Positions 1,658 to 33,144 are shown, counted from the stretch's first letter. The stretch: DNA of 33,144 bases from a virus (IMGVR_UViG_641736163_000007:1-33144); one strand, 5' to 3'. The notes: generated from the letters alone by a model not told the origin. A program made the numbers and translations.

Positions 1658-4105
1658 TTAACCGTCATGCATCATGCTGGCACGGGCGCGCGCACGTTTA
1701 TCCCGCTCGTATTTTTCGAGCGCATCCTGTAACTGGCGGTCAAGCTGTGTCCCCGGCGCAGTACCACCCGTAAGGCTGATGTGATATTCGTTTTTACTCT
1801 GGTCTACATAAGAGCGACCAGCCGGTGCCGTGACCGGCTGATAAGCCTGATAGCCTGCATAAGAGCTGGTCGCCGGAATATAACCACTGCTGCCATACGT
1901 GGCGGCTTGAGTTCTGGCGGCGGTCTGGTCAAGTGTGTCTGACTCTTTGTTGATGACACCGAGTTTTTCCAGTACCCAGTCAATACCACTGCGCAGTTTG
2001 TTGAACGCATTAAGCGGCAGCATCAGCGCGTCAGCCAGTGCCTGCCCGAACATGACGCCCGTGTCACGGCAACGGTTCAGGGTGTCCTGGGTGGCTTTGA
2101 CCGGGGCAATCAGGTTTTTAAACCACTGCCACGCGGCCTGTAACTTTTCACCCAGCCAGTCAAACACCGGTTTAAGTGGCGTGAACAATTCCCCCACCGG
2201 CGCAAATGCCGCTTTCAGCCCTTCAACCACACCGCCAAAGAATGCGCTGACAGGCTCCCAGTATTTACGGATAAGCAACGCCCCGGCGACAATGGCGGCC
2301 ACCACAGCCACAACCGGCCAGCTAATCGCCCCGATGGCCGTCATAACGGCACTGCCAACCGTCGTGAAGATTGCCCCCATTGCGCCTGCTGCCGCGATGA
2401 TGGCATTGATGCCGGTGATAACCGGCCAGGCTACGAGGCCAATGGCACCAATGATGCCAGTCAGCGCCAGTGCAACACCGGCAATAATGCCGATGGTTGA
2501 CGCCAGTGATTTATTTTTCTGGATCCAGCCGTCGAGTTTTAACACATACTTTGTGGCCGTCTGCGTGAGCTTACGCAGTGCGCCTTCCTGCTGGTCAAAC
2601 AGGTCAGTCCCCACCGCCTCATAAGCGGACTGAAACTCCTTAAAGTCACCGCCGAGGTTGTCCTGCATGATATTTACCAGCTCTGCGGTCTTTCCGTCTG
2701 AGGCTTTAAACGCAGCGGTCAGTTTGTCCAGCTTTCCGGTTGAGGCGGCAGTCATCAGCACAGCGGCGGCTGAGCTGGCCTCCTCCCCGAAAATGGTTTT
2801 CATGTATTCAGCCTGCTGGGCAGTACCGAGCCGGTTTTTCTCAAAACTGGCCTGCATTTCTTTCAGAATGGTAAATACTGGCCGGGTGTTTCCCTTGCTG
2901 TCTGAGGTTTTCACACCAAGCTCTTTGAGTGCATCCCATGCTTTTCCCGTCGGTGCCTGCAGGCGGCTTAACACGGCACGGCTTCCCGTCCCCGCCATTG
3001 AACCGGTAATTTTTGCATCATGCAGTGCCCCGACCATTGCGGCGGTTTCTTCAATGCTGACACCGGCATTTTTTGCCACAGGTGCGGCATAGGTCAGCGC
3101 ATCGCTCATACCGTCAAAATCGGCGGCGGTTTTGTTCATCGTCATGGAGAGAACATCCCCGATATGAGCGACCTTATCGTTTGAAAGCTGAAAGGCGGAT
3201 TTCATCCCCATCAGCAGGGCGGCGTTTTCTTCCATCGTGCGACGGTTCGCCAGCGCCATATTCAGCGTGACCGGCGTTGCCGCCTGAATGGCATCAACAT
3301 CCCCACCGGCTTTCGCAATAATAATCTGCGCACCGGCTGCATCATCTGCCGAGGCTGCGGTATTATCGCCGAGCTGGCGCGCCTGTTTGCGTAGTGCGGC
3401 CATTTCGGTGGAGTCTTTTGCCACTCCGAGCACAGCCTGTAATTCTGAGTTTTTCTGCGCAAACTCATAACCGGGCATCAGCAGCTTAACTCCGGCCATC
3501 GTTCCCGCAGCAGCAATCCCCACACCGGCAGCGCCCACTGAGGCCATATTTCCGGCCAGTTCCTTTCCTGCCTGATAACGCTGTTTGACTGCGTTAAGTT
3601 TTGCCTGTTGTGCACTGACACGCGCCAGCGCGTCACGCTGACGGTTAAGCTGTGCGGTGGTTTCACTGATACGGTTTTTCAGTCCCTGCTCATCATGTGC
3701 AAGATTGCGGGTATTAATTCCCACAACGGCCAGTTCCCGCTGCTGGCGTTTAACGGAATCCGTCAGGCGGTTATATTTCGCCTGTAAGTCCTCCGCCGCA
3801 CGCTTTGCGGATTCCAGCACTTTCGCCTGAGCACGGGTCGGTCGTTCGGTATTTTTAAACTGTGTGGCAAGGGCTTCGGCTTCCTGCCGCGCCTTTTCAA
3901 GTGCATGACCAGTCACGGCAAGCTGTGCACTGGTCTTGCGAAATCCCTCAATACGGGATGCGTGACCGTTCAGCTCGCGCAGTGATTTTTGTGTTTCCCG
4001 GATATCCCCCGACAGCGACTTGCTCGCTGTGCGGATGGATTTAAACGGGCGGGATGCCTGGTCAACAGCCCTGAGCAATACCTGTAATTTTACATTGTTA
4101 CTCAT
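1658..4105 (-). CDS. T: Tail tape measure protein
   Basis: 815-aa ORF, coiled-coil-rich N-terminal half, long Ala/Gly/Ile-rich hydrophobic segment mid-protein, located after the E/E' chaperone pair; size matches P2 gpT. Confidence 0.9.
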   Translation of the reverse strand: MSNNVKLQVLLRAVDQASRPFKSIRTASKSLSGDIRETQKSLRELNGHASRIEGFRKTSAQLAVTGHALEKARQEAEALATQFKNTERPTRAQAKVLESAKRAAEDLQAKYNRLTDSVKRQQRELAVVGINTRNLAHDEQGLKNRISETTAQLNRQRDALARVSAQQAKLNAVKQRYQAGKELAGNMASVGAAGVGIAAAGTMAGVKLLMPGYEFAQKNSELQAVLGVAKDSTEMAALRKQARQLGDNTAASADDAAGAQIIIAKAGGDVDAIQAATPVTLNMALANRRTMEENAALLMGMKSAFQLSNDKVAHIGDVLSMTMNKTAADFDGMSDALTYAAPVAKNAGVSIEETAAMVGALHDAKITGSMAGTGSRAVLSRLQAPTGKAWDALKELGVKTSDSKGNTRPVFTILKEMQASFEKNRLGTAQQAEYMKTIFGEEASSAAAVLMTAASTGKLDKLTAAFKASDGKTAELVNIMQDNLGGDFKEFQSAYEAVGTDLFDQQEGALRKLTQTATKYVLKLDGWIQKNKSLASTIGIIAGVALALTGIIGAIGLVAWPVITGINAIIAAAGAMGAIFTTVGSAVMTAIGAISWPVVAVVAAIVAGALLIRKYWEPVSAFFGGVVEGLKAAFAPVGELFTPLKPVFDWLGEKLQAAWQWFKNLIAPVKATQDTLNRCRDTGVMFGQALADALMLPLNAFNKLRSGIDWVLEKLGVINKESDTLDQTAARTQAATYGSSGYIPATSSYAGYQAYQPVTAPAGRSYVDQSKNEYHISLTGGTAPGTQLDRQLQDALEKYERDKRARARASMMHDG

Positions 4106-6737: not shown

Positions 6738-7847
6738 TTAATCTGAGTCCATTTTCCCAAACTCTGTCAGGCCGAAAACGGAGCTACCAGAAACATGAGC
6801 TTGTAAGCCCGCTTCCTGCATTTCACTCAATTCAACTTCCTGGCTATCCTCTAATCCGATAGAGAACATGGGATAGGCCCAGTTCCAATTCGGATCAGGA
6901 ACCAAACTATTATTCTCTATCTTGAAAAAGCTGACCATGAGATGATGCCTTCCCTGTATCGCCTCTTCATCATTGATGTTGACCAGTACACCAAAGTGCT
7001 TGTAGCCGGCTTGTCCATTCTCGAACATTTTTATCTTGGTGCCGTTTCTGAACATCCAAAAAGAATGATTTCCAGTGGAATCAGCGACCTGCAAGTTATC
7101 TTCGTCAATTTCCCAATTAAGATATTGTTTGATATCAGACTTTGGTTTGAGTTTTTCGTCATTACTAAACCATTGTATTGCCGGAAGTGGAAGGTGAAGA
7201 CCTTCCGGCTGGGGAGGCTGACCTGCAGCAATGGAATGCATGATCTCTGTCATTGATGGAAGCCCCATCAAATGCCATACATCATGGATATCCTTTTTAA
7301 GTATAAGAAGCCCTTTGGATACACCATCCGCGTAAGTTGACTTTAAGCGGACTAGTATGTCCTTGTTACCATCTTTGTCGAGGTCTTCAATGTTTACTGA
7401 AGAAGCCACAACCTCGTCGTCCCCTGCGTCTGGGATGATTGCCCAATACCCAATATCGTAGAATCCAGGTCTGCCAACCACCTTATCTATCAGACTCTGT
7501 CCAGAGGGCTCGAAGACCATCAGGAAACGGCTAAGGGCACCATTTGTGCTCACAGCTCTTCCGTAGACTACAACGGAGTTTGAGGTGCTTAGATCGAGAG
7601 ACTCGCTAGCCACTGAGTCAAACGCCACTGAGTCCAAATGTGTGGCAAGCTGCTGCTGGATGCACTCCCGAGCCATTTCAACTAATTTTTCGCGAACATC
7701 AGCAGATCGTATTGGCTGTGAAGTGAAATGGAAAAGCCCTACTGTAGCCGCTATGCCTATTATTCCCGAAATAACGGTACTTAGAACCTGCTCCTTTACC
7801 ACTTTCACAACTTTCATCAATAGCTTCTTCAACTTCACTTCAGGCAC
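6738..7847 (-). CDS. Hypothetical membrane-anchored protein, cargo at the Z/fun position (start may be ATG at 7817)
   Basis: 369-aa ORF in a visibly AT-richer segment flanked by about 430 and 300 bp of non-coding DNA; Lys-rich N-terminus followed by one hydrophobic helix (VLSTVISGIIGIAATVGLFHF); DLDKDGNKD loop resembling a DxDxDG Ca-binding motif; no family recognised. Confidence 0.7.
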   Translation of the reverse strand: MPEVKLKKLLMKVVKVVKEQVLSTVISGIIGIAATVGLFHFTSQPIRSADVREKLVEMARECIQQQLATHLDSVAFDSVASESLDLSTSNSVVVYGRAVSTNGALSRFLMVFEPSGQSLIDKVVGRPGFYDIGYWAIIPDAGDDEVVASSVNIEDLDKDGNKDILVRLKSTYADGVSKGLLILKKDIHDVWHLMGLPSMTEIMHSIAAGQPPQPEGLHLPLPAIQWFSNDEKLKPKSDIKQYLNWEIDEDNLQVADSTGNHSFWMFRNGTKIKMFENGQAGYKHFGVLVNINDEEAIQGRHHLMVSFFKIENNSLVPDPNWNWAYPMFSIGLEDSQEVELSEMQEAGLQAHVSGSSVFGLTEFGKMDSD

Positions 7848-19234: not shown

Positions 19235-19407
19235 TGTCAGGAGTCCTGAATAGTGATTAGAGGAGTCACATGTCGGCATCAGTTTCCCGACGATGCGCAT
19301 CCTCCGCCATCAGTCCCGGATGGCTTATCACTGACACAACAGCACCTTAGCGAATCGCAGGGCGCGACTCAGTAGCCTTGCCGTGTATTTATCACGGCGA
19401 GGTATTC

Positions 19408-21180
19408 ATGACCATCACCACAGACACCACTCTTTTACACGACCCGCGTCGTCAGGCGGCGCTGCTGTACTGGCAGGGGTTTTCCGTGCCGCAGATTGCC
19501 GCCATGTTGCAGATGAAACGCCCGACGGTGCAGAGCTGGAAACAGCGCGACGGCTGGGACAGTGTTGCCCCCATCAGCCGTGTCGAAATGAGCCTGGAAG
19601 CGCGGCTGACCCAGCTCATCATCAAACCGCAGAAAACCGGCGGTGATTTCAAGGAAATTGACCTGCTCGGACGCCAGATTGAACGACTGGCGCGGGTCAA
19701 CCGTTACAGTCAGACCGGCAACGAGGCAGACCTTAATCCGAACGTCGCTAACCGCAACAAAGGCGGGCGTCGCAAACCGAAAAAGAATTTTTTCAGTGAC
19801 GAGGCCATCGAAAAGCTGGAGCAGATTTTCTTTGAGCAGTCTTTCGACTATCAGTTGCACTGGTATCGCGCCGGGCTTGAGCACCGCATCCGCGATATCC
19901 TGAAATCCCGCCAGATTGGCGCGACGTTTTATTTTTCCCGCGAGGCGCTGCTGCGTGCCCTGAAAACCGGTCATAACCAGATTTTTCTGTCGGCCAGTAA
20001 AACGCAGGCGTATGTGTTCCGCGAATACATCATCGCCTTTGCCCGTCTGGTTGACGTTGACCTGACCGGTGACCCGATTGTCCTGGGCAATAACGGCGCA
20101 AAACTGATTTTTCTCGGCACCAACTCCAACACCGCGCAGAGTCATAACGGCGACCTGTACGTCGATGAGATTTTCTGGATCCCGAATTTTCAGGTACTGC
20201 GTAAGGTGGCATCAGGTATGGCCTCACAGAGTCACCTGCGCTCGACCTATTTCTCCACCCCGTCCACGCTGGCGCACGACGCCTACCCGTTCTGGTCGGG
20301 TGAACTGTTTAACCGGGGACGCGCCAGCGCCGCCGAACGCGTGGAAATCGACGTCAGTCATAACGCCCTTGCCGGTGGGCTTCTCTGTGCGGACGGCCAG
20401 TGGCGACAGATTGTCACCATTGAGGACGCCCTGAAAGGCGGCTGCACGCTGTTCGACATTGAGCAGCTCAAACGCGAAAACAGCGCCGACGATTTTAAAA
20501 ACCTGTTCATGTGTGAATTTGTTGACGACAAGGCATCGGTGTTCCCGTTCGAGGAGCTGCAACGCTGCATGGTCGACACGCTGGAAGAATGGGAAGACTA
20601 TGCGCCGTTTGCCGCCAATCCGTTCGGCTCCCGCCCGGTATGGATTGGTTACGACCCGTCACACCGTGGCGACAGCGCCGGATGCGTGGTACTGGCACCG
20701 CCGGTGGTGGCCGGTGGCAAATTCAGAATACTTGAGCGTCACCAGTGGAAAGGCATGGACTTTGCCACCCAGGCTGAATCCATCCGCAAACTCACCGAAA
20801 AATACAACGTCGAATACATCGGTATTGATGCCACCGGCCTCGGTGTCGGCGTGTTCCAGCTCGTGCGCTCGTTCTATCCCGCCGCGCGCGACATCCGCTA
20901 CACGCCGGAAATGAAAACCGCAATGGTGCTCAAGGCAAAAGACGTCATCCGCCGTGGCTGTCTGGAATACGACGTCAGCGCCACCGACATCACCAGCTCG
21001 TTTATGGCTATCCGCAAGACCATGACCAGCATCGGACGCAGTGCCACCTATGAGGCCAGCCGCAGCGAGGAAGCCAGCCACGCCGACCTCGCCTGGGCGA
21101 CCATGCACGCCCTGTTAAATGAGCCACTCACCGCCGGTATCAGCACCCCGCTGACATCCACCATTCTGGAGTTTTACTGA
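19408..21180 (+). CDS. P: Terminase large (ATPase) subunit
   Basis: 590 aa from ATG at 19408 preceded by GAGG; divergent from O; stop overlaps Q start (TGATG). Confidence 0.85.
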   Translation: MTITTDTTLLHDPRRQAALLYWQGFSVPQIAAMLQMKRPTVQSWKQRDGWDSVAPISRVEMSLEARLTQLIIKPQKTGGDFKEIDLLGRQIERLARVNRYSQTGNEADLNPNVANRNKGGRRKPKKNFFSDEAIEKLEQIFFEQSFDYQLHWYRAGLEHRIRDILKSRQIGATFYFSREALLRALKTGHNQIFLSASKTQAYVFREYIIAFARLVDVDLTGDPIVLGNNGAKLIFLGTNSNTAQSHNGDLYVDEIFWIPNFQVLRKVASGMASQSHLRSTYFSTPSTLAHDAYPFWSGELFNRGRASAAERVEIDVSHNALAGGLLCADGQWRQIVTIEDALKGGCTLFDIEQLKRENSADDFKNLFMCEFVDDKASVFPFEELQRCMVDTLEEWEDYAPFAANPFGSRPVWIGYDPSHRGDSAGCVVLAPPVVAGGKFRILERHQWKGMDFATQAESIRKLTEKYNVEYIGIDATGLGVGVFQLVRSFYPAARDIRYTPEMKTAMVLKAKDVIRRGCLEYDVSATDITSSFMAIRKTMTSIGRSATYEASRSEEASHADLAWATMHALLNEPLTAGISTPLTSTILEFY

Positions 21181-21372: not shown

Positions 21373-22122
21373 TCACTGATCTCCTTCGGTCAACGGAGAT
21401 TGTATTTTCCGCATTGATTCTCCTTTAAGTTCGATCTTGATACTGCCATGAACCAGTCGATCTAGGATGGCATCCGCATGTGTGGAGTCTCCGATCATTT
21501 TGTACCAGTTTTCCACCGGCAACTGGCTCACTACGATGATTGAGCCTCGTTGGTACATCAGATCCACTATTTCCAGCAGGTCGCTACGCTGTTCTGATGA
21601 GAGAGGTTCCAGCCCCCAGTCATCCAGAAGCAGCAGATCGCTATTATTCAGCCTGGTCAAAAGTTTGCTGTATCTTCCATCAGCATGCCCCTGATAGCAC
21701 TGTTCCATCAGCGCTTTAAGGCGATAATAGTAGACCTTGTATCCCTGTCGGCAGGCATTATGACCAAGTGCACATGCCAGGAACGTTTTACCGCTGCCGG
21801 TGGCCCCGGTCAGTAAAATATTTTGTTTCAGGGTTAACCAGTTTCCCTGACTGAGTGAACGGATGAGGGCCCTGTCCAGCCCTCTATTGTTACGATAATC
21901 CAGCTTTGATAACTCAGCATTAAGTCTGAACCGTGCATGTTTGATCAGACGCTCTGCCTTCCTGTTTTCACGGCAGGTTAGTTCTTCTGCTGTCAGTAAT
22001 GACAGGCGTTCTTCGAAGCCCAGCTCCTGGTATGTGCCCGGCTGAGCAAGTTGCTTTTTAAGCGCATCACGGAAGCCGGTGAGTTTAAGTGCGGTCAGTT
22101 GTTCGTAAAGATGATTCATCAT
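21373..22122 (-). CDS. istB: IS21-family helper ATPase IstB
   Basis: 249 aa with Walker A GATGSGKT and Walker B LLLLDDWG; follows istA. Confidence 0.9.
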   Translation of the reverse strand: MMNHLYEQLTALKLTGFRDALKKQLAQPGTYQELGFEERLSLLTAEELTCRENRKAERLIKHARFRLNAELSKLDYRNNRGLDRALIRSLSQGNWLTLKQNILLTGATGSGKTFLACALGHNACRQGYKVYYYRLKALMEQCYQGHADGRYSKLLTRLNNSDLLLLDDWGLEPLSSEQRSDLLEIVDLMYQRGSIIVVSQLPVENWYKMIGDSTHADAILDRLVHGSIKIELKGESMRKIQSPLTEGDQ

Positions 22123-22133
22123 TGGATCCCGTA

Positions 22134-23675
22134 TCAGTGGTAATACTCACTGCCGCGTACGTTTTCGTGTTCCATCGTGGATAACAGATCTGGTTTTGGA
22201 TCCTGAACAGGTTGTTTATCCAGACCTTTTTCCAGGATCGATTTAATACCTGACAGACGCCATACCTTTGTTTTCAGAGCTCTTGCACATGCTGCATTAA
22301 GTCTGGCTTTACTGTATTTTTTATGAAGGTTCAGGAGTCCAAGGCAGAAGCGATAGCTTTGTTCCGGATGTGGACGAGAGTTCAGTATATGAAGCACATA
22401 ACTATGAGTTTCACTGCCTATGTGCCCCGCCCATTCCAGAAGACGCTCTGGCGTCCAGGTGGCATGCTGTCGATGAGCTTCAGGCATGTGCTCGTTGCGG
22501 GTACTGTAGCCATAAGTACGCTTGCGCGGGTGCACAGCAACCTCCTGCCCCTGATTGAAGAGTCTTACCAGTTCTCCGGAGATCCATGCTTCCAGTTGCT
22601 GGCCTAACAGCGAACATGGAACCGAGTAGTAATGTTTGTCGATTTCCACGTGGTAATCGGCATGAACTCTGACTTTCTTCACCAGGGTGTAACTGTAACT
22701 GGCTTCAGGAAGAGGCTTCAGTGCGGGTTTATCAAGCTGGATGAAGAGTTCTGCACGTGAATAACCCAACTTCTGCATTATTTTGTTATTCAGTCTTTCC
22801 AGCAACTCCCGAATGCGCTGATTAAGCGATGCAAGGCTGTAGAAGATCTCATGCCTGATTCGGGCCATGATCCAGCGTTCAACAACCTGAACGCCAACTT
22901 CAGCTTTGGCTTTATCTTTCGGTTTACGTGGCCGCGCAGGCAAAACTGCGACATTATAATGCTCAAGCATCTGCTGGTAGGTAGGGTTAACGTCAGGATC
23001 ATACTTACATGCCCTGGATGTGGCGCTTTTCAGATTGTCCGGAACAACAAGTTCAGGAACGCCACCCAACCACTGGAAGCAGCGAACATGACTCATCACC
23101 CAGTCTTCAAGCTGCTGAGACCAGGTGGCCTCTGCCCATGTGTAACTTGATGCCCCGAGAACAGCTACGATGACCTGAGCAGTTCTTATTTCTCCGGTCT
23201 CAGGGTCGGTAACGCCAACGGTAGGTCCACAGTAATCAACGAAAAGTTTTTCGCCAGCTTTATGTACCTGACGCATTGATGGTGAAGTGGTTTTGAGCCA
23301 TTCACGGTACATCCGGCAGTAATGGTTATAGCTGTAAAAACCGCCTGGATTACGCTCACAGTATTCTTCCCAGAGTAGCTGCAGCGTCACGCATTTATTA
23401 CGCAGTTCCCGGTGTACTGTAGCCCAGTCAGGCAGAGAGTGCTTCTTCATCTTAACCTGGGTCTGAAGGAACGCATGTTTTAGTTTTGTATCATCCCATC
23501 CTGTAGGTAAGGGCCACTGCTTTATGCCAAGTTGAGCCGCCCGATTAGCATATCTGGATACAACGGAAGGGGAGATTGCAAGACTACGACCAATTTGTCG
23601 ATGGCTGAGTCCAACACAGTATTTAAGCCTAAGAATTTCTTTAAGTTTTCTCATAGAAATTGGAACTGTTGGCAT
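22134..23675 (-). CDS. istA: IS21-family transposase IstA
   Basis: 513 aa, N-terminal HTH-like region, upstream of istB in the same orientation. Confidence 0.85.
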   Translation of the reverse strand: MPTVPISMRKLKEILRLKYCVGLSHRQIGRSLAISPSVVSRYANRAAQLGIKQWPLPTGWDDTKLKHAFLQTQVKMKKHSLPDWATVHRELRNKCVTLQLLWEEYCERNPGGFYSYNHYCRMYREWLKTTSPSMRQVHKAGEKLFVDYCGPTVGVTDPETGEIRTAQVIVAVLGASSYTWAEATWSQQLEDWVMSHVRCFQWLGGVPELVVPDNLKSATSRACKYDPDVNPTYQQMLEHYNVAVLPARPRKPKDKAKAEVGVQVVERWIMARIRHEIFYSLASLNQRIRELLERLNNKIMQKLGYSRAELFIQLDKPALKPLPEASYSYTLVKKVRVHADYHVEIDKHYYSVPCSLLGQQLEAWISGELVRLFNQGQEVAVHPRKRTYGYSTRNEHMPEAHRQHATWTPERLLEWAGHIGSETHSYVLHILNSRPHPEQSYRFCLGLLNLHKKYSKARLNAACARALKTKVWRLSGIKSILEKGLDKQPVQDPKPDLLSTMEHENVRGSEYYH

Positions 23676-24806
23676 AGGTATCCTTTACCGGAATGGCAAA
23701 AGATACAGATCAACACACCTGTGAAGTTCCAATAACATTGATGGAGATCACTGAATAACAAAATGAGTCAAAAGTGATCTCCATCGATGTTATTCAGCGA
23801 TCTGTTCAAATGTTATTACCCGATCTCGATGGAAGTTATTGAGTGATCTCCTTTCATGAAAATACGCACTCGACCGCCGTGACATTCTGGATTACGTCGA
23901 GTGCATCAGTAACGGCAGATGGTATGAGCCACCGGTCAGCTTTACCGGTCTGGCAAAAAGCCTGCGTGCTGCCGTGCATCACAGCTCACCGATTTACGTC
24001 AAACGTAATATTCTGGCCTCGACATTTATCCCGCATCCGTGGCTTTCCCAGCAGGATTTCAGCCGCTTTGTGCTGGATTTTCTGGTGTTCGGTAATGCAT
24101 TTCTGGAAAAGCGTTACAGCACCACCGGTAAGGTCATCAGACTGGAAACCTCACCGGCAAAATATACCCGCCGTGGCGTGGAGGAGGATGTTTACTGGTG
24201 GGTGCCGTCCTTCAACGAGCCGACAGCCTTCGCGCCCGGTTCCGTGTTTCACCTGCTGGAGCCGGATATTAATCAGGAGCTGTACGGCCTGCCGGAATAT
24301 CTCAGCGCCCTTAACTCTGCCTGGCTGAATGAGTCGGCCACGCTGTTCCGCCGCAAGTATTACGAAAACGGCGCACATGCCGGATACATCATGTACGTCA
24401 CCGATGCCGTGCAGGATCGCAACGATATCGAAATGCTTCGCGAAAACATGATGAAGTCGAAAGGCCGCAACAACTTTAAAAACCTGTTTCTCTATGCCCC
24501 GCAGGGGAAAGCCGACGGCATTAAAATTATCCCGCTCAGTGAAGTGGCGACGAAGGACGATTTTTTTAATATCAAAAAAGCCAGCGCCGCTGACCTGCTG
24601 GACGCGCACCGCATCCCTTTTCAGTTGATGGGAGGCAAGCCGGAGAACGTCGGGTCGCTGGGCGATATTGAGAAAGTGGCAAAGGTCTTTGTCCGCAATG
24701 AGCTTATCCCGTTACAGGACAGGATCCGCGAGATAAACGGCTGGCTCGGTCAGGAGGTCATCCGCTTTAAAAACTACTCACTGGACACTGACAACGGCTG
24801 AACATC

Positions 24807-25116: not shown

Positions 25117-25977
25117 TCAACAATAAGGATAACGATTTAAAATTTCATCTTCTTGATACCCCAGATAGTGAGACATCAATCCAATTGATGGTCTCGTTAT
25201 AGGGCTATCTATCAACGGATAACGAACCTCTAAATCCTCAAATTTTAAAATTTTCACATAGCCTTTGACCTTTTTCTTATTAATTAGAGATTCCGAATAC
25301 TCTGGAAAATTTTTTAATAAAGAGTAAATATCCATAATCAAACCATCTATCATCAACATAAGTCTCTCACTAACATCAATATAAAACGCAGCATCATTCG
25401 CACCTATAATATTGACAATATCATCATTCTTCATTCGAGATGACGGCACCGGAGAGCCTGCAGCAGAAATTATTTTACCTCTACACTCTTTATCGAATTC
25501 ATTCCTTAACTTTATAGCCTCCAATAAACTATTATATCGTCTTAGCACATCTTCAATAACAATAATATCAAGCTTCTCCGCTTCATTACTGCCTGACTCA
25601 CCGACCTTCCCCTCTCCTTCAGAAATAAGACAAGTCAATTCACTCACATCTATAGATATAGGCGCCCCATAAATAACCACCACTGGAAACATTAAAGCTC
25701 TCTCAATTGGATTGGTACTTGCACAAACCCCCTTGTAATAATTACTTTTCACTTGCAACAGAGTTGTCAAGGCTGAGAAAAGCTTACACATAGATTGATT
25801 TACAACATCTATTTTTTTCTTTTCGGCCTTAACATTTTCTTGCCTATTAAAAACCCTAATGGATATAAAGTAACTTAAAAAAGCTGACAGCATCGGAAGC
25901 AATATAGGAAGAATATAATTTTTAACAAAAGCCATACTTCCATCAATACCACCAATTACTTCAATTCTTGAGTCCAC
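25117..25977 (-). CDS. Hypothetical membrane-anchored protein, cargo at the tin/old position (start may be ATG at 25935)
   Basis: 286-aa ORF in very AT-rich DNA, where an open frame this long is unlikely by chance; one N-terminal hydrophobic helix followed by a Lys-rich stretch, suggesting a cytoplasmic C-terminal domain; no family recognised. Confidence 0.7.
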   Translation of the reverse strand: MDSRIEVIGGIDGSMAFVKNYILPILLPMLSAFLSYFISIRVFNRQENVKAEKKKIDVVNQSMCKLFSALTTLLQVKSNYYKGVCASTNPIERALMFPVVVIYGAPISIDVSELTCLISEGEGKVGESGSNEAEKLDIIVIEDVLRRYNSLLEAIKLRNEFDKECRGKIISAAGSPVPSSRMKNDDIVNIIGANDAAFYIDVSERLMLMIDGLIMDIYSLLKNFPEYSESLINKKKVKGYVKILKFEDLEVRYPLIDSPITRPSIGLMSHYLGYQEDEILNRYPYC

Positions 25978-26298: not shown

Positions 26299-28572
26299 TT
26301 ACGGGCAAGTAAATCCCGGCCACTCATCAGCGACCGGATACATGAATTTTTTCCCGTCATAATTTACGGTCGCGCCACGAGCCAGCGCCTCAAGCTCCCA
26401 TCGCTGCGGCCTGATACCGTTCTGAGCAAGGTCAACGCGGATACGGGTAATTTGCATTCGTTCCGACCGGGTCAGTCTGGCCGATGGTGCAATTTCATGC
26501 GGTTTTAACGGGCTTCCGTTTCTTTGCTGACGATTTGGCGTTCTCAGCCCGTGTTTTAATGCGCCCCTGAGCGCCTTCACGACCTCCGGGTCATTCCATT
26601 CGATAACACCATCATCAACCAGATTAAGCACTGCTACGGCGTGCTCAGAAGGTGTGGGAACCGGTAACGAAGTATCACCACCGGTGAGCTTTCCACAGTT
26701 ATTGACAGGACTCCGAGGCGCGGCGATGCCGCTTTTTAAAGTCAAAGGCTCAACGACAGGAACTTTCGGCACAATGCGCCAGTCCGTGGTTCTGGTGATA
26801 TGAATATGACGCGCGCCGAGATGCGGCGCGTAAATGCCGACCACTCTCTCGACTTCTTCCTCGTACTCGTTAACGTCATCCGACGGACTACGGGCGACCC
26901 TGACAGTCTGACAATCGCGCGGGACATTTGCCCCACCCTGCGCGCTGATATACAGCGCAAAATCGCCACTGTCTGCGGCAGCGCGTGCAGCCTCGACGCG
27001 TTCGTCAAACTCATCAGCAATGCTGACGCCGCGAGGTAATTTGCGTAGTTCACGGTAAGCCCCCATTGTCGGCAGGCCAACAGTTTTAAATTGCGGAATA
27101 CGCCACGTTGACGCCCATGCGGTAACAGCCGCGGCAGTGTCTTTCAGCGGCCTGCCGGTATCGTTATCGAGCTGACCATCCAGTGCATAGCCGTCGATGT
27201 TTTTTGAAATGTATTTCGCGATATATCCCGCAGCACCGCCCCGGTTAAGGTGTTTTGCCTGAAAACGGTTTCGCGCGGCTCCTCTTTCGTCGCCATCCTC
27301 TTTGAGCGCATAGCGACGCATGATTTCGATAATCTGGTTACGCTGGCGTGGATGACAAAAAAGCATCATATGCCAGTGCGGCGTTCCGTCGTGGTGTGGC
27401 TCGACGACACGCAAACCGTAGACCTGTAAATCATTATCTTTGAATGCCGTGCGCATCAGGCTCCAGATATGGCAGAGATAACGCTGCGCATCCTTTGGAT
27501 TAAATGCCTCATCGTTCCAGCCGTGATTTAGCTGGACGGTTTTACTTTCGCCTTTTCCGACCTGACGTGTCGGGTGATACTTTGACGGCGCGGTCAGCGT
27601 GATAAACATCCCCACATCGCCCTCTGCGGCGGCGTAACGCTCAATACCGGCAATGGTGTTCATCAACTCCATCCGACGAATTTCAGGATTAGAAATACTG
27701 CCCATCACCTTACTGATAAGGTCGATGCGCTCGCCGGTTTCCCTGTTTTCGAGGTCACACGATTTAAGAAATTCCAGATTTGCCTGGCGGCGTGCACGCA
27801 CATCACGAATGGCGTGTTTACTGGCATAAGGAGAACGGTCTTTATTGACCTCCCCTACAGCAATCAGTAACGCCTCATGCCAGCGCATACGCTGGCCTTT
27901 AAGCTGATGAGTCCACCACTCATCGTTAAACAGGCGGGCAATGGCAGAATATGCCTGCCTCGTGGTCATCTGTCCTTTACGGTATTTTTTCCAGTAGAGC
28001 GGGGAAATATTGAAAGCACGTGCAGCGCCAGCAACATGACCATACAGGTGAGCCTGCGCCTCATCCGTAAACAGCGATTCTTTTTCGCCATGCGCATCCA
28101 CCCAGGCATCGCTGAGTTCCTCATACATCATGAAAAGCTGCGATGAGATACGGGCGGCAAACTTTTTCAGCTCCTTGTCATTCATTCCAGGCAGGCGCGC
28201 ATAATGGTCACGCTCTGCCAGAAACAGCAACGACGCGTCGGTGTTCATTTCATGGCGCTGATTCACGCGCTCAATGCGCGGCCATAAACGACGCTGAAAA
28301 GTGGATGTGAGGAAATAAAACCCGTGCACCGGGCTTTTATTGCGCCGGATGTAGTCATAACGTGAAGTAAACAGCGAGCGCAAAAAGTAAGGCAGACGGT
28401 TAATCGTGGATAAAACACCTTGCACCTGACGCATCTCGTCACGTGTAAGGGGTCTTTCGCGCCCGACAGCCTCGCGTGGCGCGTTCCATGCATAAGCACC
28501 GGTAAACGCCTTACCGGTGCCTGCAGCAAATGCTGACGGAGGGACAAAACGCCCGGAGGCTTTAACGGCCAT
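26299..28572 (-). CDS. A: Rolling-circle replication initiator (endonuclease)
   Basis: About 757 aa from the MAVKASG start; the track ORF starts 14 codons upstream; HUH motif (PHWHMMLF) and tandem tyrosines (YIAKYISK). Confidence 0.9.
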   Translation of the reverse strand: MAVKASGRFVPPSAFAAGTGKAFTGAYAWNAPREAVGRERPLTRDEMRQVQGVLSTINRLPYFLRSLFTSRYDYIRRNKSPVHGFYFLTSTFQRRLWPRIERVNQRHEMNTDASLLFLAERDHYARLPGMNDKELKKFAARISSQLFMMYEELSDAWVDAHGEKESLFTDEAQAHLYGHVAGAARAFNISPLYWKKYRKGQMTTRQAYSAIARLFNDEWWTHQLKGQRMRWHEALLIAVGEVNKDRSPYASKHAIRDVRARRQANLEFLKSCDLENRETGERIDLISKVMGSISNPEIRRMELMNTIAGIERYAAAEGDVGMFITLTAPSKYHPTRQVGKGESKTVQLNHGWNDEAFNPKDAQRYLCHIWSLMRTAFKDNDLQVYGLRVVEPHHDGTPHWHMMLFCHPRQRNQIIEIMRRYALKEDGDERGAARNRFQAKHLNRGGAAGYIAKYISKNIDGYALDGQLDNDTGRPLKDTAAAVTAWASTWRIPQFKTVGLPTMGAYRELRKLPRGVSIADEFDERVEAARAAADSGDFALYISAQGGANVPRDCQTVRVARSPSDDVNEYEEEVERVVGIYAPHLGARHIHITRTTDWRIVPKVPVVEPLTLKSGIAAPRSPVNNCGKLTGGDTSLPVPTPSEHAVAVLNLVDDGVIEWNDPEVVKALRGALKHGLRTPNRQQRNGSPLKPHEIAPSARLTRSERMQITRIRVDLAQNGIRPQRWELEALARGATVNYDGKKFMYPVADEWPGFTCP

Positions 28573-28837
28573 ATGAGCCAAAAGCCTCTGAACAACGCCT
28601 GCTGAGTTGCTCAACCTGCGCGTTTAAATCGGCAAAAGACTTTGCGCTTCCGGTCAGAATATCGTGATGCATCAGGCCGGAAACGAGCTGGCTTAATTTC
28701 GGGTAATAACCAACCACCGCCAGCCATTCCTGACCGGCGTTTTTACCGCTTTCCGCTCTCTTTTTCTCGTGGAGAATAAACTGAAAGCTGTCACTGGTAA
28801 CGACATAACGTTCGCCAATTTCAATACGAATACTCAT
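28562..28837 (-). CDS. Hypothetical early protein (P2 orf83-like position)
   Basis: 91-aa ORF overlapping the A start, normal GC. Confidence 0.6.
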   Translation of the reverse strand: MSIRIEIGERYVVTSDSFQFILHEKKRAESGKNAGQEWLAVVGYYPKLSQLVSGLMHHDILTGSAKSFADLNAQVEQLSRRCSEAFGSYGR

Positions 28838-29881: not shown

Positions 29882-30382
29882 TTAATGCAGATATTGCTCT
29901 GGTTTTACCGACGTCAGAATTGTCGGTGCATACTCAAACAGACTGAATAATTCACGTAATGCACGGAATAAAGCATCACGCCAGTAACATGACTCTTCAT
30001 TAATTCGCCAGTATGGCTGGTTAAATTCTTTTTCTGTCAGCCGTGCGTGCATAAATAAAGTGCGACGCTGACTGACTGTTAAAAAACTAATATATGCATA
30101 CTCACTTGCGCCAACCTGACGGCGTTTTGAGAATGCCCCGCGCAATTCATCAATTGCACAAACCAGCCGTTCACGTTCGACGTCGTTCATTTCTTCAAAA
30201 CGCATCGTTGCGTGACGCTGTTTTAACTGCGCATGAAAGCAAACCGTTAGCCGTTCGCGTTCCATCATCTGATTATAATAATCACATGTATCCTGCCAGC
30301 GAGGGACGGCCAGATGCTTACCAATTATCCGGCGCATAGCTGCTGGCTGTTTTTCAACGAGATTAAGCGTCATCACTGTCAT
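29882..30382 (-). CDS. B: Replication protein B
   Basis: 166-aa ORF in the early operon upstream of A; size matches P2 gpB. Confidence 0.8.
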   Translation of the reverse strand: MTVMTLNLVEKQPAAMRRIIGKHLAVPRWQDTCDYYNQMMERERLTVCFHAQLKQRHATMRFEEMNDVERERLVCAIDELRGAFSKRRQVGASEYAYISFLTVSQRRTLFMHARLTEKEFNQPYWRINEESCYWRDALFRALRELFSLFEYAPTILTSVKPEQYLH

Positions 30383-30549
30383 TTCCAGACCCTCCGGCTT
30401 TTCAGAAAGGTCAGAGCCTTCTTTAACGAACTCTGTTTTTTGGTGCGGATAATGATTCCCTTGCGTCCTTTCCCGTGGGTGATGGTGAAGTCAATCGCCC
30501 TAGGGCTTTCGTTACGCAATAACTGAGCAATACAACGAGGTTCCTGCAT
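30379..30549 (-). CDS. Small early protein (P2 orf78-like position)
   Basis: 56 aa from ATG at 30549 preceded by AGGAGGAG; stop overlaps B start. Confidence 0.55.
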   Translation of the reverse strand: MQEPRCIAQLLRNESPRAIDFTITHGKGRKGIIIRTKKQSSLKKALTFLKSRRVWK

Positions 30550-30649
30550 AACTCCTCCTGAAACAGAGCCGGTTTTTAGCCATGTCCGGCACATGGTCTT
30601 GTGGTAAGATCGAATCGCCAAAAACAACCAACCACAAGCGAGGTAATAA

Positions 30650-30844
30650 ATGAATAATCAAAATATTGACGAACTTATAACCACTCTCGAAAAAGCGGTT
30701 GCATTAGCAAATACCCTACCAACTCCAATGGGAGATTTTGAGGACGCTAAAAAAGTGGATGAATTAACTATTCAATTAAGAGAGATCATTCACCCTAAAA
30801 AGCCAGTCCAACTCAAAGGCTTTATTGATATAAATCATTTTTAA
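30650..30844 (+). CDS. Hypothetical small protein (64 aa), opposite orientation to early operon
   Basis: ATG preceded by GAGGTAATAA; AT-rich; upstream TGgTAAGAT -10-like element and a CCATGT-N5-ACATGG palindrome. Confidence 0.45.
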   Translation: MNNQNIDELITTLEKAVALANTLPTPMGDFEDAKKVDELTIQLREIIHPKKPVQLKGFIDINHF

Positions 30845-31286
30845 AATAGCATCTTGCATCCGTATGCTGTTTATACGGATGCGTCATCATGTCAAAAATA
30901 CTTTTCCAGTCATCAAGCCCTATTGACCATTTAATACTATTTATATCGCCTGATTTAGAAATTATCGTTTCACGAAGAGCCTTAGCGAGTTCCATGCGCT
31001 CTTGAACGGTCATACCAACGCATTCATATTTAATGCGCAAAAAAGAGTCATGAAATAAAGATTTCAAATTCAGCCGTAGAATTTCTTCATCACCATCTGA
31101 ACTAATAAAAACAAGTTCATCATTATCCAAAATGATATTTTGTTTTCTCAATTCATCGGCTGATTTATATTCTTTCGTACTATTAGCAAACTCACTATAC
31201 GTAATAGTCAGGCTGTTAGATGGTGATGCATCTTCAAGGTTTCCTCTGATGATAGTCACCGATGTTTTATTTAAATCTTGCCTCAT
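30822..31286 (-). CDS. Hypothetical protein (154 aa), AT-rich insertion downstream of cox
   Basis: ATG preceded by GGAGGAG, 10 nt after the cox stop; acidic; no family recognised. Confidence 0.6.
   Translation of the reverse strand: MRQDLNKTSVTIIRGNLEDASPSNSLTITYSEFANSTKEYKSADELRKQNIILDNDELVFISSDGDEEILRLNLKSLFHDSFLRIKYECVGMTVQERMELAKALRETIISKSGDINSIKWSIGLDDWKSIFDMMTHPYKQHTDARCYFKNDLYQ
30856..30882. terminator. Perfect 10-bp stem hairpin (GCATCCGTAT-N7-ATACGGATGC) at the convergent gene junction
   Basis: Read directly; lies 12 nt after the plus-strand 64-aa ORF stop but inside the 3' end of the 154-aa ORF; no strong T-tract. Confidence 0.3.
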
Positions 31287-31295
31287 GGCTCCTCC

Positions 31296-31652
31296 TTAGG
31301 CCGCGTGGCCATGTCTGGATTTGCTGTAACTTATGCGGTTCTTCCAGTCATGCCATTCTGTCGGAGCTTCATCGACTAGTTGAGCTGCATATTTGTCCCA
31401 CTCACGACGATTAATCCATAACTCAGCGTGACCGCCCGGCTTTAACGGGTCTGTCATATAGAATGCTGGCAGCTTTCCAGCTCGTGCCATTTCAGCCACC
31501 GCACGAGGAGTCTTACCGATGTAAAGAGCAAAACCCTCTTTCGACAGTAAATCTGACGGATCCGCAGCCAACTTAATGGAATCACGCTTGTTTTTTTTAA
31601 GAGCAGAAACTTCTTGTCTTTTCTCGTCACAAATTTCAGATCCGACATTCAT
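31296..31652 (-). CDS. cox: Cox-like excision/transcriptional regulator
   Basis: First gene of the early operon, divergent from C; contains the GKLP..MTDP segment I recall from P2 Cox; 118-aa ORF, true start may differ. Confidence 0.65.
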   Translation of the reverse strand: MNVGSEICDEKRQEVSALKKNKRDSIKLAADPSDLLSKEGFALYIGKTPRAVAEMARAGKLPAFYMTDPLKPGGHAELWINRREWDKYAAQLVDEAPTEWHDWKNRISYSKSRHGHAA

Positions 31653-31680
31653 TTTGCTATCCTCACATTGATGTCAGCGA

Positions 31681-31710
31681 TCTAGAGCGATTTAGAGTCG
31701 TTAGATGCTG
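31681..31710. promoter_or_regulatory. Putative immunity operator: imperfect direct repeats (TAGAGCGAT / TAGAGTCGT / TAGATGCTG) in the cox-C divergent promoter region
   Basis: Three about 10-bp-spaced direct repeats between the cox start (31652) and C start (31756); P2-type repressors bind direct repeats. Confidence 0.4.
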
Positions 31711-31755
31711 ATAAATTATATCAACTATGCAAAAGAATACGAGGTTAGAGAATTT

Positions 31756-32055
31756 ATGTCAACTGACACTAGCGAACGTTTGAAGCTTATCCGTGAGTCT
31801 GAACGTCTGAAAATGAAGGAGGTAGCTGAACTAGCTGGCATCAACTACACCACATATGCAGGTTATGAATCAGGTAAGGCTATGATGTCCCTAGAAAATG
31901 CTAAGAAGTTTTTTAAAGTAGAAAGGTTCAGAAAATACCGTGACTGGTTCATGTTTGATGAGACAGATCCCGCTGCCGGACAAATAGCCCCGGCGCTCGC
32001 ACACATTGGGCAAGACTCAACAACCTTGCACCACTCAGACCAAAAGACTGGCTGA
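31756..32055 (+). CDS. C: Immunity repressor C
   Basis: 99 aa from ATG at 31756 preceded by GAGG; the track ORF starts 17 codons upstream; HTH-like N-terminus; upstream of and co-oriented with int. Confidence 0.8.
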   Translation: MSTDTSERLKLIRESERLKMKEVAELAGINYTTYAGYESGKAMMSLENAKKFFKVERFRKYRDWFMFDETDPAAGQIAPALAHIGQDSTTLHHSDQKTG

Positions 32056-32148: not shown

Positions 32149-33144
32149 ATGTCTATTAAAAAGCTCGATGATGGTCGTTATGAAGTGGACGTCAGGCCGC
32201 AGGGTGCAGATGGAAAACGTATCAGGCGGAAATTTAAAACTAAAGGTGAAGCCCAGGCATTCGAGCGTCATGTCCTGGTTAACTACCACAACAAAGAGTG
32301 GTTGGAGAAGCCGGCCGACCGCCGAACTCTTACAGAGTTGTTAGGCAGATGGTGGATATATCACGGAAAATCACATGAGCGTGGAGATATTGAACGGGGG
32401 CGTTTGACGACAATAATTGCCAAATTTGCTGAGATGGGAGTGTCCAGGGCGGACCAGCTAACAAAGAAAACGATAACTGATTATCGCGTTGTAATGATGA
32501 ACGACGGTCTAAAACCAGCCAGCGTAAATCGGCATCTGGCAATAATGAGCGGGATGTTCACCAAGTTAATTGACGCCGGTGAATATCACTCTCACAACCC
32601 GTTCCGTGAGGTGAAGCGGTTACGTGAAGCTGTTACGGAAATGGCTTTTTTGTCCAGTGAAGAGATTACGCGGCTGCTATCCATGCTTGATGGTGATGAA
32701 TTAAATGCGACTCTGGTCTGCCTTTCTACTGGTGGACGCTGGAGTGAAGTGTCTAATTTAAAAGCTGAACACATCATTAACCAAATGGTTACGTTTATGA
32801 AAACCAAAAACGGAAAGCGCAGGACAATTCCCGTTTCGCAGGACTTGATTAAACGGATCAAAACCAAAAATTCTGGCAGGCTTTTTAATGCCAGTTACTA
32901 CAAAGTGCGCAACGCTCTCAGGGAAGTAAAACCCGATTTACCTGACGGACAGGCAGTGCATGTTTTGAGGCATACATTTGCCACACATTTTATAATGAAT
33001 GGAGGTAACATAATCACATTGCAGCGCATCCTGGGTCATTCTAACATTCAGCAAACTATGACCTACGCACACTTTGCACCGGATTTCTTACAAGATGCTG
33101 TGACTCTTAACCCGGTGTCAGGAATGTCCATAATGCGTCCATAA
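32149..33144 (+). CDS. int: Tyrosine integrase
   Basis: 331 aa; C-terminal catalytic signature (HVLRHTFAT ... GHSNIQQTMTYAHF) with conserved R, HxxR and Y; ends at the window edge. Confidence 0.9.
   Translation: MSIKKLDDGRYEVDVRPQGADGKRIRRKFKTKGEAQAFERHVLVNYHNKEWLEKPADRRTLTELLGRWWIYHGKSHERGDIERGRLTTIIAKFAEMGVSRADQLTKKTITDYRVVMMNDGLKPASVNRHLAIMSGMFTKLIDAGEYHSHNPFREVKRLREAVTEMAFLSSEEITRLLSMLDGDELNATLVCLSTGGRWSEVSNLKAEHIINQMVTFMKTKNGKRRTIPVSQDLIKRIKTKNSGRLFNASYYKVRNALREVKPDLPDGQAVHVLRHTFATHFIMNGGNIITLQRILGHSNIQQTMTYAHFAPDFLQDAVTLNPVSGMSIMRP

Follow-up and report, generated by a model that had tools for sequence, protein, structure and literature searches.

A convergent gene pair between cox and orf78 of a P2-like prophage appears to be one of several exchangeable cargos inside the early operon

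When two genes face each other inside the early operon of a prophage, do they work together, or do they only share a site? This question is raised by a 33,144-nucleotide stretch of viral DNA (IMGVR_UViG_641736163_000007:1-33144, hereafter the window), which is a P2-like (Peduovirus) prophage. A first-pass annotation of the window had described an AT-rich segment that interrupts the early operon between cox and an orf78-like gene. It had placed in that segment a 154-aa gene co-oriented with the operon (the large gene) and a 64-aa gene on the opposite strand (the small gene), and had proposed that convergent transcription could couple the two, as in a toxin/antidote or regulator/effector pair. 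The results showed that the insertion exists and measures 746 bp. In prophages with an empty site, 10 bp separate the cox stop codon from the orf78 start, so the limits of the insert are exactly 30550-31295, in place of this 10-bp spacer. Its guanine-plus-cytosine (GC) content, 36.7%, is lower than that of the whole window (51.8%) or of the flanks (44-45%), in agreement with its description as AT-rich. Both open reading frames (ORFs) were also found as described (Table 1): the large ORF starts 9 nt past the cox stop codon behind a strong GGAGGAG site, and the 3' end of the small ORF, on the other strand, overlaps it by 23 nt.

We then examined how often the site is occupied. The flanks were matched in 1670 of 5426 complete Escherichia coli genomes, the insert itself in 4 of them, and the module of about 100 bp at its orf78 end, which we call the adapter, in 60. 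Lysogens with this allele include E. coli DAX4 (NZ_CP126343), EA2, A3024 and BUCT2930. Among the 80 best IMG/VR relatives of orf78, 76 have an empty site and 4 a filled one. The large protein is thus not the product of a backbone gene, which would have spoken against the first-pass proposal. Two features used to recognise morons and phage hotspots were observed, namely presence in some prophages with absence at the same site in close relatives, and a base composition that deviates from the backbone. As for a promoter and terminator of its own, conservation points to the promoter, and the hairpin described below covaries and has no U-tract in the allele of the window. These findings indicate that a swappable accessory cassette occupies a recombination hotspot here and that the segment is its type A allele; the hotspot lies between the lytic regulator gene (cox in P2-type and cII in 186-type prophages) and orf78.

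Three cargo types of one architecture occupy the site in E. coli genomes. Besides type A, these are type B, with a 58-aa gene on the + strand and a 62-aa gene on the - strand, which is the commonest type in E. coli and is also present in the isolated Yersinia phages vB_YpM_115 and vB_YpM_117, and type C, with a 68-aa gene (+) and a 198-aa gene (-). BLASTP revealed no similarity among the cargos of types A, B and C, and an apparent MAFFT alignment of the three was disregarded. Further cassette types were found in Pectobacterium, Brenneria, Xenorhabdus, Kluyvera, Citrobacter, Salmonella and Yersinia, and at least seven enterobacterial genera have P2- or 186-type prophages that use the hotspot. 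The Pectobacterium, Brenneria and Xenorhabdus cassettes belong to prophages of the phage 186 type (CI/Apl/CII), with the cassette directly after cII. The tail-to-tail layout is kept in eight cargo types, with a small gene of 58-68 aa in a near-fixed position. Literature searches on the cassette, the protein accessions and insertions between cox and orf78 returned no description of the site, the promoter or the proteins. What appears to be new is the exact site inside the early operon, the conserved adapter promoter and a gene pair apparently split between lysogenic and lytic units; prophage accessory cassettes as such were already known. As a separate observation on type C, a record annotated as a plasmid (NZ_CP134387.1, E. 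coli TUM11352, 88 kb) contains one such cassette between P2-like flanks at positions 39491-41059, and the chromosome of the same strain holds a second type C copy.

To define the family to which the type A genes belong, we obtained relatives from IMG/VR, a protein database and a DNA motif scan. A single-query word-index protein search returned near-identical clusters only, and it took an exhaustive HMMER search, then a profile search, to obtain a family of 19 enterobacterial clusters for the large protein, at 32-43% identity. We discarded two of five HMMER matches as probably spurious, namely the repeat protein P0005 and the helicase-associated-domain-like repeat protein P0007, and a protein-alignment pattern scan of species-representative genomes yielded no confirmed relative. 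The results showed that related prophages do carry the pair as a unit: in all 11 distinct family-A loci from IMG/VR and assemblies, a large homologue (33-47% identical) lies between cox and a convergent 62-64-aa ORF, and these loci are surrounded by differing cox, C and int alleles. Homologues of the small protein (62-63 aa, 51-68% identical) occupy the same position and orientation in the 10 loci other than the window, and the small protein is better conserved than the large one. The ratio of nonsynonymous to synonymous substitution rates (dN/dS) was 0.13-0.25 for the small gene against the window copy and about 0.2-0.4 for the large gene (0.13-0.49 for both together), all with saturated synonymous sites. 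The small ORF is therefore conserved as a protein, and the comparisons indicate purifying selection on both proteins and joint retention of the pair.

Both products are hydrophilic, with a grand average of hydropathy of -0.54 for the large and -0.28 for the small protein, which is predicted to be soluble. The large protein had been called acidic, which holds in a mild form (net charge -5; pI in Table 1), and the cargo proteins overall were computed from their sequences to be soluble and mildly acidic. Neither the large nor the small protein matched an entry in Pfam, PHROGs, PADLOC or NCBIfam, and the large one matched none in PDB. A PDB sequence search with profiles of both A families gave chance matches only. 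In the same four family collections nothing was found for the A and C pairs, and the B pair matched only PHROGs of unknown function; in PADLOC, likewise, neither the A, B and C pairs nor types E, F and G had a match, and type D had a marginal one to JAB (E 0.0014). Structure prediction, which the first-pass annotation had recommended, did not help. The AlphaFold2 predicted local distance difference test score of the large protein was 39 without an alignment and 52 with 19 sequences, both of low confidence, and a Foldseek search of PDB with the better model gave nothing below E 0.5. Because model confidence was low and Foldseek was empty, we assigned no fold.

We next turned to the adapter, which lies on the orf78 side of the insert and is absent from empty sites. 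It is near-invariant across unrelated cargos and across P2-type and 186-type prophages. A scan of viral, genome and metagenome collections for the motif CCATG-N7-CATGG-N2-3-TTGTGGTAnnAT gave 37 matching stretches; among the 58 loci with the motif and enough flank, 2 were evident chance hits, and the P2/186-family contexts supplied 25 distinct module sequences. Adapter loci and homologue contexts came from E. coli, Citrobacter, Kluyvera, Salmonella, Yersinia, Pectobacterium, Brenneria and Xenorhabdus. The -10-like element TGgTAAGAT attributed to the small gene is present, and across the 25 module variants the extended -10 (TGnTAnnAT) keeps its TG and its hexamer positions 1, 2, 5 and 6 unchanged and varies at positions 3-4 (AG, GG, CT). 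We infer from this pattern, which would be the signature of a working extended -10 promoter, that the adapter holds a promoter directed against the early operon. A two-hexamer promoter scan misses the element because it has no -35 match. The CA-rich leader downstream is common to all cargo types except B and has partly diverged in the Xenorhabdus cassettes, and in 13 cassettes a distance of 67-88 nt separates the dyad at the promoter's -35 position from the start of the small ORF, whose length is as given above.

This dyad had been described as a CCATGT-N5-ACATGG palindrome. Such a palindrome is present in the window, but relatives keep only the 5-bp core CCATG/CATGG and not the sixth pair. 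No family locus deviates from the 5-bp arms or the central CCGG, and the dyad occurs once in the window, against 0.03 expected occurrences. Folded as RNA it is not unusually stable (z-scores -0.8 and -1.3), and no compensatory change was found among the module variants. Since the sixth pair is not kept and the RNA stability is ordinary, a DNA site is more likely than an RNA stem, and we set the RNA hairpin aside and regard the dyad as a candidate protein-binding site. An identical dyad precedes unrelated small proteins, which makes autoregulation by the cargo unlikely. Compared by eye with known regulator sites, it fits none of those for LexA, CRP, FNR, FadR/GntR, sigma-54 or Ogr-type regulators (TGT-N12-ACA). 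A second conserved inverted repeat, GCCGG(G)-N11-13-(C)CCGGC at 30568-30590, overlaps the CCATG dyad, and the two are mutually exclusive as stems.

At the other end of the small gene, the first-pass annotation had placed a perfect 10-bp-stem hairpin at the junction of the two genes. The stem is there, but it is not between the genes: it lies within the last 20 codons of the large ORF, where its DNA forms codons 135-143 (HPYKQHTDA). Its folding energy is -15 to -17 kcal/mol (z-scores -3.3 to -4.1). All 11 family-A loci have a hairpin in the same place; its sequence differs by lineage (GCATCCG or GTGCGGC) and its position is constant. Compensatory changes were found in 8 of the 11 hairpin pairs. 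Read on the + strand, that of the small gene, the pair table has 16 G.U cells against 1 C.A cell, and the hairpin therefore fits RNA of the + strand and not its complement. This strand bias is indirect evolutionary evidence that the small gene is transcribed, and together with the conservation of the promoter it points indirectly to a transcribed small unit. The hairpin is likely to be the 3' end of the small transcript, as a terminator or stabiliser. Beyond family A, most cassette types have a hairpin past the small stop codon, within the final codons of the large gene. A U-tract follows this hairpin in types C and H, which makes it a canonical intrinsic terminator there. In 13 cassettes the two stop codons range from a 23-nt overlap to 32 nt apart, so most have too little room for an intergenic terminator. 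An Rfam search of 30300-31800 gave sub-threshold chance matches only.

We then asked whether the family of the small gene follows any part of its large partner. Two family-A large proteins of 216-219 aa (P0019 and P0021) have an extra C-terminal domain homologous to the C-terminus of type C (E 8e-11), and a 284-aa H-type protein (L130) with an unrelated N-terminus has the same C-type domain at 63% identity (E 3e-34). On all three different N-termini, the neighbouring small gene is always of the C family and never of the A family. Type F, from Brenneria, agrees: its small protein is A-like (hhalign E 7.5e-5), and a C-terminal segment of its large protein resembles family A (BLAST E 1e-4, hhalign E 2e-3). 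Because the three C-type contexts and type F agree, the small family follows the 3'-terminal module of the large gene. A motif of the C-type C-terminal domain, [YC]x[RQ]x[YH]...Gx[VI]x[YF], also recurs inside the 284-aa H-type protein and inside a 199-aa D-type protein, L102 (E 0.017), which suggests a repeated unit common to otherwise unrelated cargo proteins.

How the two genes would be expressed can be deduced from the layout. In P2 lysogens, repressor C silences the early promoter Pe, and the P2 early transcript must reach the replication genes B and A. The large gene starts at the cox stop codon, which its Shine-Dalgarno sequence abuts, and there is no terminator-like site on the - strand ahead of orf78; for these reasons we place it in the Pe early transcript. 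As C represses Pe and the early transcript runs to B and A, the large gene should be expressed only when Pe fires, and as this transcript must reach B and A, lytic transcription should run over the small unit and cover it with antisense RNA. In a lysogen, with Pe silenced, only the small unit would be transcribed, and the small protein would be present and the large one absent. Upon infection or derepression, polymerase starting at Pe would read through the entire cassette toward B and A, would meet the small promoter head-on and would make an RNA fully antisense to the small mRNA. Head-on transcription and antisense RNA together would turn the small gene off while the large protein is made. 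Coupling by convergent transcription is therefore plausible from the anatomy of the locus. Within such a scheme, the small protein may act as a cognate neutraliser, immunity-like or antidote-like, of a large early effector, and may cover leaky or foreign copies of that effector in lysogens. We favour this reading of a neutraliser-effector pair with reciprocal expression, switched by convergent transcription, but hold it tentatively, at a little under an even chance.

A number of observations weigh against it. No cargo protein matched a toxin, antitoxin, immunity or defence family. In Xenorhabdus beddingii and X. bakwenae (L118 and L124), the adapter drives a protein of about 158 aa that has no convergent partner; this protein apparently has two transmembrane segments, and neither Pfam nor PADLOC gave a match for it. 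Type G, known from an IMG/VR contig (L098) and from Pectobacterium sp. B1J-3 (L122), is differently arranged, in that its two genes start back to back, one of 79 aa on the strand of the early operon and one of 87 aa on that of the promoter. In E. coli 2013C-4830 (L005, NZ_CP027325; locus positions 2590-3818), an IS3-family element splits the promoter from the type C small gene, and the 198-aa gene is intact despite it; the prophage is degraded, with A and cox as pseudogenes, and the module match in E. coli 2012C-4227 breaks at the same place. The hairpin of family A is without a U-tract, which leaves the 3' end of the transcript uncertain. Distances between small proteins and between large proteins of family A are weakly correlated (Mantel r 0.38, p 0.016; Spearman 0.19, not significant), and because this mirror-tree signal is weak we do not claim co-evolution. 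Moreover, the 3' end of the large gene contains the small gene's hairpin, and part of the partner tracking could be explained by physical linkage alone. The coupled pair of the first-pass annotation thus survives in part: both genes are conserved and co-retained, the small one as a protein and the large one outside the backbone, but family matches to toxins, antitoxins or defence proteins are lacking, the layout is not that of a type II system, co-divergence is weak and some cassettes have no partner.

Several of these points would be expected of two independent accessory genes at one hotspot, the small one a lysogen-expressed moron (for example for exclusion or lysogenic conversion) and the large one an unrelated early gene (for example for anti-defence or host takeover), linked by adjacency and by the embedded terminator. 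One adapter that drives unrelated genes, as in Xenorhabdus and in the rearranged type G, distance matrices that are weakly correlated and discordant, and a hairpin inside the large gene all fit such an arrangement, and the P2 accessory genes old and tin occupy known variable loci (PMC9122126). Set against this are the eight cargo types that keep the tail-to-tail layout and a small gene of constrained length, the retention of both genes in every one of the diverged family-A loci, and the size of the tracked C-terminal domain, which at about 75 aa far exceeds the 30-45 nt of the hairpin and is tracked over three N-termini. Independence of the two genes is the main rival of the favoured reading, one that we take seriously and yet consider less likely. 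The conservation of promoter, dyad and 5' leader, which outrank every cargo protein, could instead mean that the promoter-strand unit acts mainly at the level of RNA or transcription, a constitutive anti-Pe promoter and its antisense transcript damping leaky early expression and stabilising lysogeny, with the small protein secondary. A unit placed head-on within an operon that needs read-through to B and A, and a 3' hairpin under structural selection, would suit this role. It is nevertheless improbable, as the small ORFs have good Shine-Dalgarno sites, a constant length and low dN/dS values with saturated synonymous sites, which speak for selection on the protein, the module is missing from about 95% of P2-like prophages, and a transcript ending at the hairpin would have a short antisense overlap with the upstream early genes.

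Two small adjacent prophage genes with a promoter palindrome, and with a convergent 3' overlap as in some type I systems, also recall a classical type I or type II toxin-antitoxin or an abortive-infection module. The genes are not co-transcribed, however, as a type II layout would have them; the small product is a hydrophilic conserved protein and neither a non-coding RNA nor a hydrophobic peptide; searches of Pfam, NCBIfam and PADLOC gave no toxin or antitoxin match; and the same dyad stands before unrelated small proteins, which makes autoregulation unlikely. We consider a classical module of this kind very improbable. As for chance ORFs in AT-rich DNA, the lack of family and structure matches and the low AlphaFold2 confidence might suggest them, but amino-acid conservation with saturated synonymous sites, co-retention and hairpin covariation refute this explanation, and independent gene calls (RefSeq, assemblies) and the conserved promoter also contradict it; we give it a negligible probability.

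We compared the cassette with known systems of similar layout. Accessory loci of P2-like phages include the gpA-gpQ interval (old, tin), the tail region and a minor 'integrase-primase' interval, and the int-gpA interval is reported to hold 8% of P2-like defence systems (PMC13586616; PMC9122126). Like morons and the P2 hotspots, the cassette is an AT-rich insert absent from most relatives, with a putative promoter and 3' hairpin of its own and cargos swapped at a fixed site. Unlike them, it is a tail-to-tail pair split over lysogenic and lytic units and not a self-contained defence operon, and its cargo matches no known defence model. In pore-forming colicin loci, the effector gene is inducible, and an immunity gene with its own promoter faces it from the opposite strand (PMC9517006). 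The proposed effector/partner arrangement of the cassette is similar, a likeness of layout only, and in polymorphic toxins, as in the cassettes, the larger protein's C-terminal domain and the partner family go together. Of the properties of colicin-like systems, the layout and family-level C-terminal tracking were seen here, and fine-scale co-divergence was weak. The cassette proteins have no sequence or fold relationship to colicins; the small ones are predicted to be soluble and are not membrane proteins, the large ones have no receptor, translocation or pore domains, and induction would come from derepression of Pe, whereas colicins are induced by SOS.

The type I pairs txpA/RatA and bsrG/SR4 of Bacillus subtilis prophage regions overlap convergently at their 3' ends. 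The cassette resembles them as a convergent prophage unit with a 3' overlap (23 nt between the ORFs, with the hairpin inside the large ORF), but both of its partners are conserved, predicted soluble proteins, with no hydrophobic toxin peptide and no non-coding antitoxin RNA. From type II toxin-antitoxin systems it differs in that its genes are convergent and on separate transcription units. In phage 186, the convergent switch promoters show transcriptional interference. In P2, the switch promoters Pe and Pc lie face to face (PMC1904263). The cassette shares convergent promoters and the phage family with these switches, and a strong lytic promoter is expected to interfere with an opposing one; unlike the switch promoters, that of the cassette lies about 1.1 kb downstream of Pe within the operon, is accessory and would drive cargo and not an immunity repressor.

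P2-like prophages occur in about one third of the complete E. coli genomes searched and are a model for accessory exchange in temperate phages. To this the locus adds an exchange site within the early operon whose position is precisely known, a portable and conserved promoter-operator-leader module that would lend itself to direct testing and reuse, and no fewer than eight uncharacterised protein pairs, for which the layout predicts reciprocal lysogenic and lytic expression. If these are effector-neutraliser pairs, they would represent new protein families for phage-phage or phage-satellite conflict and a simple natural switch built on convergent transcription. If the two genes are independent, the adapter would still mark a set of small proteins expressed in lysogens. 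A broader proposal, which we think unlikely at present, is that the cassettes between cox or cII and orf78 form an unrecognised class of modular conflict systems in P2/186-family phages, with exchangeable N- and C-terminal effector domains, matched immunity-like proteins expressed constitutively from a universal promoter that a regulatory factor controls, and Pe flipping the balance at induction. Lysogens would then neutralise effectors of their own leaky prophage, of incoming related phages or of satellites, and the adapter would be a portable expression socket for shuffling pairs.

Table 1. Positions of the cassette elements and of other annotated genes in the window
Feature	Position	Strand	Details
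Large gene, 154 aa, pI 5.2	30822-31286	-	GGAGGAG Shine-Dalgarno sequence at 31289-31295, abutting the cox stop codon (31296-31298)
Small gene, 64 aa, pI 5.1	30650-30844	+	GAGGT Shine-Dalgarno sequence at 30640-30644; RefSeq WP_001064716
Adapter, about 100 bp	30550-30649	both	- strand: orf78 Shine-Dalgarno sequence; + strand: putative small-gene promoter and CA-rich 5' leader
Dyad CCATG-yCCGGyr-CATGG (candidate operator)	30580-30596	+	at the promoter's -35 position
Extended -10 TGgTAAGAT	30602-30610 (hexamer 30605-30610)	+	predicted transcription start at about 30617
Hairpin, perfect 10-bp stem	30856-30882	+	12 nt past the small-gene stop codon
Integrase	32149-33144	+	
Repressor C	31756-32055	+	
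cox, 118-aa variant, first gene of the early operon	31296-31652	-	Pfam Phage_Cox E 9e-29; phrog_1831
orf78-like gene, 56 aa	30379-30549	-	phrog_273 E 6e-40
Gene B	29882-30382	-	phrog_235
Gene A	26299-28614	-	
Portal remnant	23974-24801	+	next to terminase P
IstA	22134-23675	-	
IstB	21373-22122	-	
Terminase P	19378-21180	+	

Among the neighbouring genes (Table 1), the integrase adjoins pflA in near-identical E. coli chromosomes. The Cox protein of the window has 118 aa, against 88-90 aa in other cassette-bearing prophages; the Phage_Cox match in Pfam spans residues 26-106, which leaves an N-terminal extension of about 25 residues. Orf78, whose gene invariably adjoins the adapter, is extremely basic (pI 11.65, net charge +11.6). 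An IS21-family element lies within the portal gene Q (21373-24801), and because it interrupts this gene the prophage of the window is probably defective. A PADLOC match of IstB to 'DrmD' most likely reflects generic similarity among AAA ATPases. Two further ORFs without a Pfam or PADLOC match, one of 286 aa in the known gpA-gpQ accessory hotspot (25117-25977, - strand) and one of 369 aa in the tail region (6738-7847, - strand), are candidates for unknown accessory or defence genes.

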